A DNA stretch of 64,000 nucleotides. Origin: Planctomycetota bacterium. GTDB taxonomy: Bacteria; Planctomycetota; GCA-002687715; CAIWVZ01. Positions 32,365 through 37,150 of the stretch are shown one piece after another. Location: contig JBGANV010000001.1 of NCBI GenBank assembly GCA_044222185.1, positions 2,144,001 to 2,208,000 of the forward strand. Reading direction: 5' to 3'. The position numbers and the translations under genes were made by a program. Under the pieces are notes generated by a model. That model searched no databases and was not told the origin of the DNA. It was given only the letters and a program-made list of their open reading frames with translations. The stretch's first letter is position 1. Every line of letters starts with the position of its first letter.

Positions 32365-35136
32365 TCAGTCCAGACGGCGTGCCGGGCGGACGCCCAGGTC
32401 GTCGTTGTGGTAGTTCGGCGCGAGACCGTAGCGAAACGAGACTCGCGCATAATTCGCGTTGAACGTGAAGCTGCCGCCTCGCGCGATGAACCCGTCCGAC
32501 TGATCACCGGCACGAAGCCCTTCCGGACCCGACGCCGCCAGTTCCTTGTATTGCGCGTAGGGCTCGCGGGTCATCTCGAAGACGTTGCCGTGGACCTCGT
32601 GCAGCCCGAAGGGATTCGCGCGCGTCGATCCGACGGGGGCATGCAGCACGAAACCATCATCGAGTTCGGGCCAGTCGCCGATCGCGGGCCACTGAGCACC
32701 ACCTCGCAGTGCGGCCTGATCCGCCAGGTTCGCCGCGACTCCGTGCTGGCGCAGGGACTCGCGGTCTGGTCCGCTCCACCACGGGGTCGCCGTGCCCGCG
32801 CGCGCCGCGTATTCCCACTGAGCCTCGGTCGGCACCGTGAGACCGAGCTGCCACGACACACGGATCGCGTCCGCGTGTCCGATGGACTCGACCGGATGCG
32901 TCAACGTGAACACCGTCCCCCCGGCGCGCAGTCCCGCAGCATAGGACGCCGGGTTTCGACCCGTCGCACGGAGCCACTGCCCCTGGGTCATCTCGTATTT
33001 CGAGATGAAGAACGGAGCGAGAGTCACACGGTTCACCGGGCTCTCGTCGGCGACGGCCGCGGCGTCCACGTTGGGTTCGCCGGACGTCTGCGCGTCGTCG
33101 GGTCGAGCCGCGCCCATGGCGAACGTCCCACCGGGCACGAGGACGAGCACCACGCCGTCCTCCGGCACGAGGGCATATCGTCCATCGGGCCCGACCTTGG
33201 GCTGCGGCCCATGACCCGGGGCGACGGTCGCCACGTGGATGAACTCCCAGAGCCCCGAGTCGGGATCGCGGCGAATCGGGACGAGCCCCAACTGCGGTCG
33301 GATCCGCAGCCCACCGTACTTCGGACAGGCGGCCGCATCGCCGATCGATGCGACGGCCTCGTTCCATTGCGCCGCGAAGCGCCCGACCGTCCGCTCGGTG
33401 ACCGTGCGTGAGGTCTGCAATCGCGCGTCGACGTCGGCGATCAGACCGATGGCCGGATCGGGATCCGAGAGCCGTGCGAGGTCATCCACGAGCCCCGTCA
33501 GGTAATCGTGCTTCCACTGGTCTTCCGTTCGCGAGAAGCGCCACTCGGTCCGTTTTGCACGCGTGTCCGCTGGAGCCGATGCAGGGCGCTCGTTGGCGCC
33601 GGCGCGGAGGTTCGCCAGCGCGACCCGGTGCGCCTCGAGGTTCGACGCGAGCTGCCGCGCCCGGCGCAACCAGTCCTCGAGGCGCGCGGTCATCTCCGGC
33701 ATCGCCGGGAAGAGGTCGGCCGCCTCGCGCGCGAGATCCGCCAGCCGCTTTCCGTCGGCGAGTCGCTCGTAATCCGCCAGCGCGACGGCGCGAGTCCGCG
33801 CGTTCTCGTCGGCGCGATCGCGCTCACGCTCGGTGGCGTGAAGGAGACTCTGGCTGACGATGAGCGCCGCCCCGAGGATCACGAAGATCGCGACGAGGGC
33901 CGTTGCGAGCGATGGATTCCGGCGACTCCAGCTCACCGCCCGCGACAACGCCGTCGCGGGTTTGGCCAGGATCGGTTCGTGGTTCCGCACGCGATGCAGG
34001 TCTTCCGCGAACGCCAGTGCGCTCTGGTAGCGACGGTCGCGATCCTTGCTCAGCGCCGTTGCGATGACGACGCCCAGGTCCCGCGAGATCGACAGGTTCA
34101 GCACGCGAGGATCGGCCGGTTCGTCCCGGAGGATTCGCTGCCAGAGCGCGGCGCGCGTCGGCGCTTCGAACGGTGGACGCAGCGTCACGCACTCGTACAG
34201 CGTGGCTCCGAGCGAGTAGACGTCCGTCCGGCGATCGAGGACTCCCGTCGCAGCGACCTGCTCGGGTGACATGTAGGCCGGCGTCCCGAAGAGGTCGCCC
34301 GCCTGGGTCAGACCGACGTCGTCAGCCCAGAGGTCGCGCGCGAGTCCGAAGTCGAGAACCACGGGGTTTCCGTCCTCGCCCACCATGATGTTCCCCGGCT
34401 TGATGTCGCGGTGGATCACCCCCGCCTCGTGTGCGGCGTGAAGTGCGCGCGCGGCCTTCTCGACGAGCTCGATGGCGGCGAGCAGGTCCGGGCGGATCGG
34501 AACGGTGGCCTGGTCGACGCGGCGGACCGCCGTCGCCTCCCGCGCCGTCCGGTGCGTCACGCCGAGGTCGACGTAGGTGCTGTCGGTGGCGGTGCCGGTC
34601 CGAAGCGATTGGATGCGGCGCGCGAGCGTCTCGCCGCGGACGTAGCGCATGGCGATGTATGGGGTCTCGCCCACCACGCCGGAGTCGTACACCGTGCAGA
34701 TACCCGCGTGGTCCAACCGCGAGGCGACCTCGGCCTCGCGCTGGAAGCGGCGAACGGTCTCCGAGCCTGGGGCCGCCGTGGACGACAGCAGCTTCAGCGC
34801 CACGCGTCGGTGCAGCCGGGTGTCCGTCGCGAGATACACCGCACCCTGGCCGCCACGCCCCAGTTCGTCCTCGATCTGGTATTGCGCCAGCCTGTCGCCC
34901 GGACGCCAATCAGTGGCTTGCTTGCGGGTTTCACGGCCGACGCGGACGGTCTCGTCCGACGCCGAGACGCGGGAGTGCTCACGGGCGATGAGGCTCTCAT
35001 GACCCGGCCACAAAGCCTGATAATCGGCCAGGCTACGGATCCGGCCCGCCGCACGATCGGCGCGGTAGAGGTCCTGGAATTCCTGGGTCGGGTCGACGTC
35101 AGCCATGCGTGGTATCGGCGCGGTTGCCGAGGCCAT
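32365..35136 (-). CDS. Ser/Thr protein kinase fused to FGE-sulfatase (SUMF1) domain
   Basis: GRGGQG, VALK, HRDIKPGN, DFG, GTPAYMSPE, one TM, then FxMG, PTEAQWEYAARAG, NPFGLHEVHGNV and RGGS. The ORF-track extension to 36012 is the shadow of the + strand gene. Confidence 0.9.
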   Translation of the reverse strand: MASATAPIPRMADVDPTQEFQDLYRADRAAGRIRSLADYQALWPGHESLIAREHSRVSASDETVRVGRETRKQATDWRPGDRLAQYQIEDELGRGGQGAVYLATDTRLHRRVALKLLSSTAAPGSETVRRFQREAEVASRLDHAGICTVYDSGVVGETPYIAMRYVRGETLARRIQSLRTGTATDSTYVDLGVTHRTAREATAVRRVDQATVPIRPDLLAAIELVEKAARALHAAHEAGVIHRDIKPGNIMVGEDGNPVVLDFGLARDLWADDVGLTQAGDLFGTPAYMSPEQVAATGVLDRRTDVYSLGATLYECVTLRPPFEAPTRAALWQRILRDEPADPRVLNLSISRDLGVVIATALSKDRDRRYQSALAFAEDLHRVRNHEPILAKPATALSRAVSWSRRNPSLATALVAIFVILGAALIVSQSLLHATERERDRADENARTRAVALADYERLADGKRLADLAREAADLFPAMPEMTARLEDWLRRARQLASNLEAHRVALANLRAGANERPASAPADTRAKRTEWRFSRTEDQWKHDYLTGLVDDLARLSDPDPAIGLIADVDARLQTSRTVTERTVGRFAAQWNEAVASIGDAAACPKYGGLRIRPQLGLVPIRRDPDSGLWEFIHVATVAPGHGPQPKVGPDGRYALVPEDGVVLVLVPGGTFAMGAARPDDAQTSGEPNVDAAAVADESPVNRVTLAPFFISKYEMTQGQWLRATGRNPASYAAGLRAGGTVFTLTHPVESIGHADAIRVSWQLGLTVPTEAQWEYAARAGTATPWWSGPDRESLRQHGVAANLADQAALRGGAQWPAIGDWPELDDGFVLHAPVGSTRANPFGLHEVHGNVFEMTREPYAQYKELAASGPEGLRAGDQSDGFIARGGSFTFNANYARVSFRYGLAPNYHNDDLGVRPARRLD

Positions 35137-35283
35137 GGATACCACGCGGGGTGGCGCGCTGCCGGCAGCTCCCGACCCCAGCGGGATTTTTTCCTTGGGC
35201 CTCGCCGTCTCCGTCGACGAAGATCGGCCCCACTGCGAGGGCCGCGCGACAGGACTGCGGCCCCCCAAGACGAGGACCGAACC

Positions 35284-36015
35284 ATGCCGAGATCCGGACG
35301 ATGGCTCCAGTTGACGGCCGCCAGCCTGCTCGGGCTCGCGTTCGTGCTGGCGAGTGGGACCGCGCACGCCCAGGCCGAGGATGACGACGCATTCGACCAC
35401 GCCGGGACGTTGCGCCAGATCCGACGGAACATGGCGAAGATCGAGGAGGAGCTGGGACGGCTCGGCCCTCACGACCCCAAGACCGGTGAGAAGGTCATCG
35501 AGGACATCGACAGGGTCCTCGATCAGGCGAAGAAGCGTGGCGACCAGATCGTGAGCGACATCGACACGTTCCTCGATCATCTGAAGTGTTGAAGCGGCGG
35601 GGCCGGTTCCAGCCCGGGTGGCGGGAATCCCAAGGGATCGTCGAAGCCGAACGGCAAGGGTTCGCAGGCGCGCGGCGCGGCGCGAGACCGCAACAAGTCC
35701 GACAAGCCGGATGACTCGGCCAGGCGTCCGGGCAAGAAGAAACCCGGTGAGTCGGCGGGCGGCAAGAAGGGCGGCGGCCCCGAAGACGGCACCGCTCGTG
35801 AGAAGGCCGGCGGCCAGAACGTCGACGGGCCCGAGAAGGAGCCAGGGCCGAAGCAGAAGGTTCCGATGGACCTCGTGAACGAGCTGTGGGGCAACCTCCC
35901 GCGCGAGCTCCGCCAGAAGCTCGTGGACCGCAACTTCGACGAGGTGACGCCCGAGTACGAGGCGGAGGTCGTCGAGTACTTCAAGAAGACGAACGTGCCG
36001 GTGAAGAAGCACTGA
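35284..36015 (+). CDS. Secreted 243-aa protein with in-frame UGA at codon 103 (Cys-Sec motif); candidate selenoprotein
   Basis: GAGG RBS and signal peptide (AHA-Q), then a helical domain ending LKC-TGA (35590-35592). The frame stays open with GC3-rich codons through a G/K/S/P linker to a WGNLP...PEYEAEVVEYFK domain, stop 36013-36015. SECIS-like hairpin at 35605-35629. Confidence 0.72.
35605..35629 (+). promoter_or_regulatory. Putative bacterial SECIS element
   Basis: GGTTCC-A-GCC-[CGGGT]-GGC-G-GGAATC: 6-bp plus 3-bp stem, 5-nt loop with G at position 2, and 22 nt between UGA and loop. Confidence 0.55.
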
Positions 36016-36082
36016 TTCCGACCCGGCGCGTGCGAAGGCCCCGATCGGTCGAGGTCCCCTCCAAACGGAACGGCTGCAGGAA

Positions 36083-36420
36083 CTGCGCGCGATGACCGCC
36101 GACGACCGTCCGACGAACCGAGCGGTCCTCGAGCATCAGCCATAGGTGTGGAGCGTCGATCACACCTCGGCCGGGTCCGCCGCGGAGACAGGCACGAACT
36201 TCGACATCGTCCTCGTCGATCGTCAGATGCCCGACGAAGACGGGTCGTCGTTCGTTCGGTGGCTCCGCGCCACGACGGACGGAACGATCGTGCGTGTCGT
36301 GATGATGACCTCCGCGGACGCGGTGTCAGGCCTGGCGGGCGTGCCACACGCCATGAACGGAGCCGGTCCCTGCAAGCGGCCGGTCTTGAATCGCTCCGAG
36401 CGCGGGCCCGCGGACGGCGT
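36083..36420 (+). pseudogene. Degenerate response-regulator receiver domain remnant
   Basis: Reads LRAMTADDRPTNRAVLEHQP*VWSVD...FDIVLVDRQMPDEDG...VVMMTS...KRPV, with in-frame TAG at 36143-36145. Confidence 0.65.
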
Positions 36421-36749
36421 CAGAACGCGTCGGCGACGGTGCCGGGAAGACTCCGCCCGTCGCTCGACGGAAGGTCGTCGTCGTCATCGAATTCGCCGAA
36501 GTCCATGGCGTCGGCGCCAGGCTTGATCTCGTCGAGGATCTCGCGGGCGCGCGCGAGGTCGCGCGCCGGCACCGATATCTCGCAGCCCAGCGCGCCGATG
36601 ATCGTCTGCCACGTCGCCCAGCCATCCGCGAGGAAACGACCGGGAATGACCGCATGGATTCCCTCACGCTCGAGCGCCTCCGCCCACATACCAGCGATCA
36701 CCGGGTTCGGCGCACGGCCGACGACGACATGGGGACCGGGGCCTTCCAT
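36420..36749 (-). CDS. DUF2007-like putative signal-transducing protein
   Basis: AxxxxxxLEREGI...ISVPARDLARAREIL pattern with an acidic tail. Confidence 0.75.
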   Translation of the reverse strand: MEGPGPHVVVGRAPNPVIAGMWAEALEREGIHAVIPGRFLADGWATWQTIIGALGCEISVPARDLARAREILDEIKPGADAMDFGEFDDDDDLPSSDGRSLPGTVADAF

Positions 36750-36844: not shown

Positions 36845-37150
36845 ATGACACTCGACCGAGCCACTCTCCGAGCCCTTCGAAGCCAGGCCCACCACCTCAC
36901 GCCGACCGTCCGCATCGGACCCAACGGCGTCACCCCCGGAGTCGTGCAGGCGCTCGACGTCGAGTTCAAGAAAACCGAGCTCGTGAAGGTCCAATGCACC
37001 AAGGCGACGGCCGAGACCACGGCCGCCGCGGCGACCGAGCTGGCGGCGGCAGCCAGGGCCGACGTCGTTCAGGTCATCGGACACACGTTCACGCTGCACC
37101 GCGCGCGACGCGATACACCGCCGGACGACGACGTCGACCTCGGCGACTGA
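36845..37150 (+). CDS. yhbY: YhbY/CRM-domain RNA-binding protein
   Basis: LRSQAHHLTPTVRIGPNG, ELVKV and VQVIGHTFTLHR. Confidence 0.9.
   Translation: MTLDRATLRALRSQAHHLTPTVRIGPNGVTPGVVQALDVEFKKTELVKVQCTKATAETTAAAATELAAAARADVVQVIGHTFTLHRARRDTPPDDDVDLGD

Follow-up and report, generated by a model that had tools for sequence, protein, structure and literature searches.

We analyzed a 64,000-nucleotide stretch of DNA from a Planctomycetota bacterium (assembly GCA_044222185.1, contig JBGANV010000001.1, positions 2,144,001 to 2,208,000), here called the window, and focused on a gene on its forward strand whose reading frame is interrupted by an in-frame TGA codon (Table 1). The frame reads ...FLDHLKC-TGA (35590 to 35592) and then continues for 140 sense codons to another TGA at 36013 to 36015. 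Our results make it highly likely that positions 35284 to 36015 form one gene, encoding an exported 243-residue protein in which the UGA at codon 103 is read as selenocysteine (Sec, U), and the presence of the same TGA in many Planctomycetota suggests a selenoprotein family that current catalogs lack. An earlier reading of the DNA letters (the original prediction) had proposed a secreted selenoprotein here, with a hairpin resembling a selenocysteine insertion sequence (SECIS) just after the TGA. All of its statements about the sequence, namely the ribosome-binding site, the signal peptide, the Cys-TGA at 35590, the 140-codon continuation, and the third-position codon bias, were verified.

The reading frame before and after the TGA

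The N terminus shows the pattern MPRSGRW-hydrophobic-AHA↓QAEDDD (read by eye, with the arrow at the putative cleavage site), and homologs carry the same hydrophobic N-terminal segment ending in A-x-A/Q. The G+C content at third codon positions (GC3) is 0.85 before the TGA and 0.89 after it, and the corresponding values at second positions (GC2) are 0.40 and 0.49, a bias typical of coding sequence. The original prediction held that no start codon follows the TGA for about 90 codons, and the first in-frame ATG, GTG, or TTG is indeed the ATG at 35866, codon 92 past the TGA. The first ~12 codons of the linker double as hairpin-coding sequence. An open reading frame (ORF) of 1215 aa on the minus strand overlaps the gene; because its G+C content over this stretch (0.87 at first positions, GC1, and GC3 of 0.67) mirrors that of the plus-strand gene, it is a mirror image of that gene and is not coding here.

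Table 1. Features of the candidate selenoprotein gene, in window coordinates
Feature	Position	Strand	Details and basis
Whole gene	35284-36015	+	243 codons, Sec (U) at codon 103, stop TGA 36013-36015; translation, single-frame homologs, GC3
Shine-Dalgarno-like GAGGA	35272-35276	+	7-nt spacer to ATG 35284; direct reading
Signal peptide, residues 1-29, putative cleavage AHA↓QA	35284-35370	+	By-eye reading
N-terminal helical hairpin (helices 39-59, 65-104)	35398-35595	+	AlphaFold2 model, predicted local distance difference test (pLDDT) 81-88 for the block
Cys102 (TGT) and Sec103 (TGA), vicinal CU site at end of helix 2	35587-35592	+	Sequence; aligned TGA in 21/21 copies
SECIS-like hairpin	35600-35631, core 35605-35629	+	-12.2 kcal/mol; family-wide specific to TGA forms
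Gly/Ser/Lys/Pro-rich disordered linker, residues 105-195	35596-35868	+	pLDDT 45-53 over most of it, without secondary structure
Conserved C-terminal module WGNLPxELRQKLVDRNF..TPEY....EYFKK	35869-36012	+	Helices 196-202, 207-215, 223-236

The two halves belong to one gene

Five homologs of 236 to 240 aa from a collection of 5.8 billion proteins cover 87 to 95% of the read-through product at 42 to 47% identity, and they align across the TGA, linker codons included. All 50 distinct genomic copies examined are likewise single reading frames, and the genome itself holds a TGA-free paralog (G000:C12:1549-2250) that is 49% identical to the window gene. The original prediction had asked whether the halves are separate genes in other organisms; this was never so among the 5 database homologs and 50 genomic copies.

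As had also been predicted, standard annotation splits the gene: the public protein collection holds it only as fragments, one of 102 aa (P0157) and one of 49 aa that begins at ATG 35866 (P0158). These automatic entries would fit a pair of genes, the first for a small helical protein that is secreted and the second an independently translated downstream ORF. That explanation is the least probable of those we considered, with almost no chance of being right. There is no in-frame start in the 91 codons past the TGA, and these codons show coding GC3 and align with the linker of the homologs; with every relative examined being a single frame, the homolog alignments refute it.

Conservation within the family is highest in the C-terminal module. 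In an alignment of 43 sequences, columns W202, L205, P206, Y225, and Y232 are invariant or nearly so, and the motif is intact in the window. Between closer pairs of TGA-bearing copies (U forms), the ratio of nonsynonymous to synonymous substitution rates (Ka/Ks) after the TGA is 0.29 (G372-G077), 0.12 (G109-G338), 0.24 (G032-G088), and 0.19 (G317-G345), which resembles the part before the TGA. These ratios indicate that the sequence downstream of the TGA is under purifying selection in the U forms.

This selection bears on the possibility that the UGA acts mainly as a stop, with the 102-residue secreted helical hairpin as the main product and the full-length selenoprotein as a minor one whose amount follows the selenium supply, in the manner of a selenium-dependent switch between two products. 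Release factor 2 competes with Sec decoding, whose efficiency is typically low, and the helical hairpin is self-contained, confidently modeled, and ends exactly at the UGA. Moreover, a Cys-less full-length paralog is kept in G372, G233, G235, and the window genome, so that truncation would leave the cell still with a full-length protein. We nevertheless regard this as unlikely, given that the downstream half of the U forms is under purifying selection and keeps the invariant C-terminal motif, which argues that the full-length product matters. Such a switch would refine the reading of the gene as encoding a full-length selenoprotein rather than contradict it.

The TGA is shared across Planctomycetota

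We searched 401 Planctomycetota genomes with a profile of the family, reading through stops, and found the family in 118 of them, with an in-frame TGA in 24 entries and a TAA in 1. Twenty TGA entries were fetched, which together with the window gave 21 copies; the TGA entries G150, G215, and G291 and the TAA entry G051 lie outside this set. In all 21 copies, the TGA falls 9 to 13 residues after a D-I-D-E-L-I anchor (D-I-D-x-h-h, window residues 92 to 97), at the end of helix 2 and before the Gly/Ser-rich linker. The genomes concerned span 9 GTDB families, that is, 20 genomes and 8 further families beyond the window. In the searches made, the family is essentially confined to Planctomycetota.

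The immediate context of the TGA takes three forms. It directly follows a Cys codon (CU) in the window, G372, G077, and G233; it precedes a Cys as UxxC in G235, G029, G169, and G186 or as UxxxC in G276; and it has no nearby Cys in G196, G136, G317, G345, G032, G088, G109, G324, G338, G059, G309, and G008. The last of these copies (L058, G008:C116, minus strand, ~1025-1080 in locus coordinates) contains a further in-frame TGA, 8 codons after the first (...GGSU MSSGGL U KASP...). This additional TGA falls within the apical loop of the hairpin belonging to the first, and the conserved C-terminal module is still in frame; the protein could have two Sec residues, or the additional TGA could be an error or a genuine stop.

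On a maximum-likelihood tree of the 50 copies, the U label is scattered, with 9 changes, at least 4 of them forced by well-supported branches. The root of this tree is arbitrary and its TGA-free entries are best-scoring loci rather than a fair sample, for which reason we do not use it to order the gains and losses. The sister of a U form is often a Cys-less paralog from the same genome; the window gene pairs in this way with its own paralog (support 94/92), as do the two G233 copies (100/98). In G235 (L076:11845-12789), G372 (L048:1385-2083), and G233 (L050:1293-2045), the Cys-less paralog lies immediately upstream of the Sec form, and this tandem arrangement recurs across different GTDB families.

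The relationship to an intact paralog raises the possibility that the window gene is a pseudogene or an assembly error, in which a Cys or Ser codon suffered a nonsense mutation in one duplicate copy. The TGA-free paralog is the tree sister of the window gene, at 49% identity, and Ka/Ks between the two is 0.58 to 0.72. Against this stand the same-site TGA in 20 other genomes from 8 further families and 140 downstream codons with no further stops or frameshifts, a GC3 of 0.89, and an intact C-terminal motif. The TGA was also confirmed beyond the assembly: contigs from two other, independent studies are identical to the window at 35590 to 35592, with 0 differences over 35114 to 35622 in one (X2) and differences only at 35180 and 35700 over 35118 to 35730 in the other (X8). 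The TGA is thus no sequencing error, and we consider the pseudogene explanation highly improbable. Runs X7 and X16 leave the TGA itself uncovered; X16, an RNA-library run, yielded contigs over 35630 to 35788 and 35835 to 36040, which are no proof of transcription or translation. Because the gene's own stop is TGA, the code is the standard one, and a reassigned genetic code is not the explanation.

Cysteine occupies the site in some TGA-free relatives

A profile search of 1.84 billion cluster representatives returned 5036 family members at E <= 0.001 and 1481 at E <= 1e-10. We read the residue at the site in the best 150 representatives, all of them TGA-free. Cys is present in 23 of the 150, and in most of these it is the only Cys of the protein. 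The Cys motifs mirror those of the U forms, with GGSCSSG matching GGTUSGS and IPLCDSC matching IPLUNSC, and further cases of Cys at the site occur in P0003 to P0006 and in L037, L039, and L046. Judged from these sequences, the position is a genuine Sec/Cys site.

TGA-bearing copies share a hairpin

The hairpin described in the original prediction is present as stated: GGTTCC-A-GCC-[CGGGT]-GGC-G-GGAATC at 35605 to 35629, with the stem separated from the TGA by 12 nt and the loop by 22 nt. For a comparison across the family, we took the best single hairpin of each copy whose apical loop starts 14 to 30 nt after the codon. Under this constraint, the best hairpin of the window is the one above, extended to 35600 to 35631. 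The 21 TGA forms have a mean hairpin energy of -12.1 kcal/mol, against -6.4 kcal/mol at the aligned site of 29 TGA-free homologs (Mann-Whitney p = 2e-5, for related sequences that are not independent), at similar G+C contents (0.65 versus 0.63). A GT (GU in the RNA) occurs in the apical loop in 18 of the 21 TGA forms, compared with 2 of the 29 TGA-free homologs.

The loop motif AGTT is read in two different frames, as agt-tcg (G077, G136, G317) and as c-ag-tt (G235, G186), which argues for a constraint on the RNA and not on the protein. We also observed compensatory changes within subgroups that align unambiguously, for example ggCtcc/ggaGcc in G109 and ggTtcc/ggaAcc in G338. When the 56 nt that follow the TGA in 19 copies were aligned with MAFFT, the result was good only within subgroups; an alignment anchored on the hairpins themselves would have the pairing built into it.

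The genome's own selD gene (L010, G000:C14:427704-428624) provides an internal reference. Itself a selenoprotein gene, it has one in-frame TGA, in the context GGGU-ACK, and 26 nt after this TGA begins a 7-bp stem with the loop GGTCC. The family gene has the same arrangement of a TGA and then a hairpin, and one family copy, that of G233, shares the loop GGTCC.

Selenocysteine machinery in the genome

The original prediction called for a search for the Sec machinery, and all of it was found in this genome, above curated cutoffs: SelA (396.9 bits), SelB (330.4 bits, cutoff 242), SelD (370.6 bits), and tRNA-Sec (74.7 bits). The tRNA-Sec gene lies beside selA, within ~120 nt after it (G000:C1:1631414-1632718, L001/L002); selB is at C1:529551 and selD at C14:427704. 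SelA is present in all 21 TGA-bearing genomes. Overall, it was detected in 59 of 61 genomes, all picked for carrying the family; the exceptions are G337 (84% complete) and G054 (97% complete).

Protein architecture and gene neighborhood

An AlphaFold2 model based on the 43-sequence alignment predicts a helical hairpin (residues 39 to 59 and 65 to 104), disorder from 105 to 195, and three short helices between 196 and 236. The linker region is of low complexity in all homologs. Sec, with or without a neighboring Cys, is the sole thiol or selenol of the mature protein. In the ESM Atlas, the relatives fall into unnamed "hypothetical protein" clusters of Planctomycetota, and the nearest named lead is DUF4175 (score 0.76, 16% of members).

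In 9 of the 12 loci examined, a large homologous gene lies directly upstream of the family gene and encodes a DUF4175-like coiled-coil protein of 1000 to 1240 aa with weak to moderate hits to PF13779. One protein of a representative library (P0142, 1204 aa) fuses the two, with the family domain at residues 974 to 1201 and a DUF4175-like part that is 40% identical over 959 aa to the neighbor in G317. Genes for prenyltransferase-like, PQQ/BamB-like beta-propeller, and vWA-like proteins also occur near the family gene. The C-terminal module probably docks onto the DUF4175-like partner or the same envelope structure. In many assemblies (contigs G000:C12, G077:C5, G059:C2, G338:C28, G109:C18, and G309:C77), the contig starts within the DUF4175-like gene, only 150 to 2000 nt before the family gene; this long, repetitive coiled-coil gene may regularly break assemblies.

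The surroundings of the window gene are of a different kind. Divergent from it, at 32365 to 35142 on the minus strand, is a gene whose product has a Ser/Thr kinase domain at its N-terminal end and an FGE-sulfatase (SUMF1-like) domain at its C-terminal end; the N terminus of this product is really near 35140, and the mechanical ORF list over-extends it to 36012. Downstream lie a DUF2007 gene (36420 to 36749, minus strand) and a YhbY/CRS1 RNA-binding gene (36845 to 37150, plus strand), with no apparent link to the selenoprotein gene. A scan for promoters and terminators found nothing clearly linked to the gene, only one terminator-like site before the gene, at 35170 to 35186 (plus strand), and another within the end of the gene, on the minus strand.

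Comparison with known selenoproteins

The original prediction stated that the protein resembles no recognized selenoprotein family, and database searches agree with it. The read-through product matched no Pfam family at E <= 1, and its sole match in NCBIfam (release 20) was CbtB (E = 0.16; 12.5 bits, where the cutoff is 64.4); Pfam and NCBIfam searches with two of the homologs likewise gave no family. A catalog of May 2026 lists in its Table 1 119 prokaryotic selenoprotein families, each with a domain accession (PMC13188914). No match was found to the Pfam, NCBIfam, or TIGRFAM models of these families, a comparison outside which lie the families listed with CDD or PTHR identifiers only and the supplementary sequence lists. 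The main texts on BSepDB (111 families) and deep-Sep, supplementary tables aside, do not mention Planctomycetes (PMC12013277, PMC13326102), and selenoprotein candidates of two planctomycetes are tabulated in supplementary S9 of PMC4807772; that table, or Table S2 of deep-Sep or of BSepDB, might already include this family. A literature search found no paper pairing DUF4175 with selenocysteine.

In E. coli FdhF and SelD, the UGA is decoded through a SECIS hairpin just 3' of it. With bacterial SECIS selenoproteins in general, the family shares an in-frame UGA, a hairpin within ~12 nt of it, a GU apical loop, Cys homologs, and, in this genome, the Sec machinery. It differs from ordinary bacterial selenoproteins in its predicted structure, which is no oxidoreductase fold and joins a helical hairpin to a small helical module through a disordered linker, and in that most of its members have neither Sec nor Cys.

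Among cataloged families, those with a CU motif are KCU-star/DUF466, SaoC, SaoL, HgcA, MbdU, and Csac_0668 (PMC13188914), and passages in two sources describe CU-motif selenoprotein genes as truncated at the CU in databases (PMC13188914; bioRxiv 10.1101/2022.07.06.499078). The window gene has both the vicinal Cys-Sec and the database truncation at the CU in common with them. The models NF033934, NF040734, NF040728, NF040863, and NF045648 are absent from the NCBIfam matches of the window protein; Csac_0668 is cataloged under a CDD identifier (cd10141), outside this set of models. The family also differs from the CU-motif families in that CU is here one of three contexts, beside UxxC and lone U.

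Weighing the selenoprotein interpretation

The conserved TGA, the Sec/Cys pairs, the hairpin of the TGA forms, the selection downstream, and the Sec machinery all support the original interpretation, and the in-frame TGA very probably does encode selenocysteine, within a secreted protein. Several results weigh against this interpretation or parts of it. Among the best 150 representatives, 127 have neither Cys nor Sec at the site and carry Ser, Gln, or Gly instead; relatives that mostly lack both are unusual for a selenoprotein family and mean that the residue is dispensable for core function. The original prediction had expected homologs with Cys or an aligned TGA and had taken Trp, Arg, Gly, or Ser as a sign of mutation or error. 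The TGA in 20 other genomes and the Cys in 23 of the 150 agree with its expectation, and no Trp or Arg was seen at the aligned position among the sequences inspected, where copies lacking the TGA carry Cys or a small polar residue. Each of the three conditions that the original prediction had set for its refutation was thus decided in its favor. Since most TGA-free relatives have neither residue, Sec/Cys is an optional feature of the family and not its core. The machinery test does not discriminate, as SelA is also present in 38 of 40 TGA-free genomes. Comparisons of the window gene with its nearest relatives give Ka/Ks of 0.34 to 0.72 with synonymous sites near saturation, and selection on the window copy itself is weakly resolved.

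The hairpin of the window, taken by itself, is unremarkable. The minimum free energy (MFE) of the 66-nt region has a z of 0.27, with 117 of 200 shuffles folding at least as well, and its unconstrained MFE structure differs from the hairpin, so that the significance of the hairpin comes solely from the comparison with homologs. The loop CGGGU is unlike the commoner AGUUC, GGUCA, and GUC loops, and no SECIS model from Rfam matched over 35500 to 35720 (E <= 10), where the only hit was to Twister-P5 at a chance-level E of 2.8. Finally, the presence of selenium in the protein is deduced from sequence and not from experiment.

These points lend themselves to another explanation, in which a near-cognate tRNA (Trp or Cys) reads the UGA without selenocysteine and the hairpin merely slows termination; selenium being only deduced, a hairpin no better than shuffles and the lack of an Rfam SECIS match are what it would lead one to see. 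However, the site pairs with Cys in TGA-free relatives, with CxxC matching UxxC in the classic signature of Sec, SelA is found in 21 of 21 TGA-bearing genomes, and the position of the hairpin and the GU loops match the element in the genome's own selD. We therefore rate near-cognate readthrough as very unlikely, and decoding as selenocysteine remains our preferred reading of the UGA.

The remaining points concern the structure and the setting. The model is only moderate (mean pLDDT 63.8; predicted template modeling score, pTM, 0.36), and a Foldseek search of the PDB retrieved just generic two-helix hairpins, none of them at E <= 0.001. Unlike most family genes, which usually follow a DUF4175-like gene, the window copy lies elsewhere, outside the DUF4175 neighborhood and among Pkinase+FGE-sulfatase, DUF2007, YhbY, and GH3 genes; it is a dispersed paralog. 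The window protein has no Pfam match to the DUF4175 model (PF13779). We also considered a Se-S bridge from Sec to a Cys of the upstream DUF4175-like partner, which is unlikely, as the mature partners have no Cys.

A model for the function of the candidate selenoprotein

By analogy with known systems, SelB carrying Sec-tRNA(Sec) would bind the hairpin that starts 12 nt past the UGA and thereby deliver Sec to the ribosome; where delivery fails, translation would stop and leave the 102-residue fragment. The Sec-type (secretory) signal peptide would direct export from the cytoplasm. In its mature form, the protein is predicted to consist of a helical hairpin tipped by Cys102-Sec103, ~90 disordered residues, and the conserved three-helix C-terminal module. 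We tentatively suggest an envelope-associated structural or adaptor protein to which Sec adds a redox, metal(loid)-binding, or self-cross-linking site; our best guess is that such a redox-active, metal(loid)-binding, or cross-linking site was added to a structural envelope protein and is no catalytic center.

For the family as a whole, we lean, with somewhat better than even confidence, toward the following picture. It would be an uncataloged, exported selenoprotein family without a thioredoxin fold, widespread in Planctomycetota, with Sec at the junction of helical hairpin and linker, alternating with Cys or with nothing, and often beside a Cys-less tandem paralog. The linker codons would double as the SECIS, and Sec would serve in structure, cross-linking, or metal(loid) binding rather than in catalysis.

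Implications

Bacterial selenoproteins have mostly been found via known families, with the result that lineage-specific families are missed and annotated as two fragments, as happened here. The family would place a selenoprotein in a phylum that is barely mentioned in the main texts of the selenoprotein papers considered above, and it would be a rare case of an exported, apparently nonenzymatic one. Its natural series of U, C, or neither at one site, together with the tandem paralogs, offers a good means of asking what purpose Sec serves. The ~20 diverse hairpins could improve models of bacterial SECIS elements, and recognition of the family would correct the annotation in dozens of genomes. 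If our reading is true, the family could partly explain the presence of the Sec machinery in 59 of the 61 family-carrying genomes tested.

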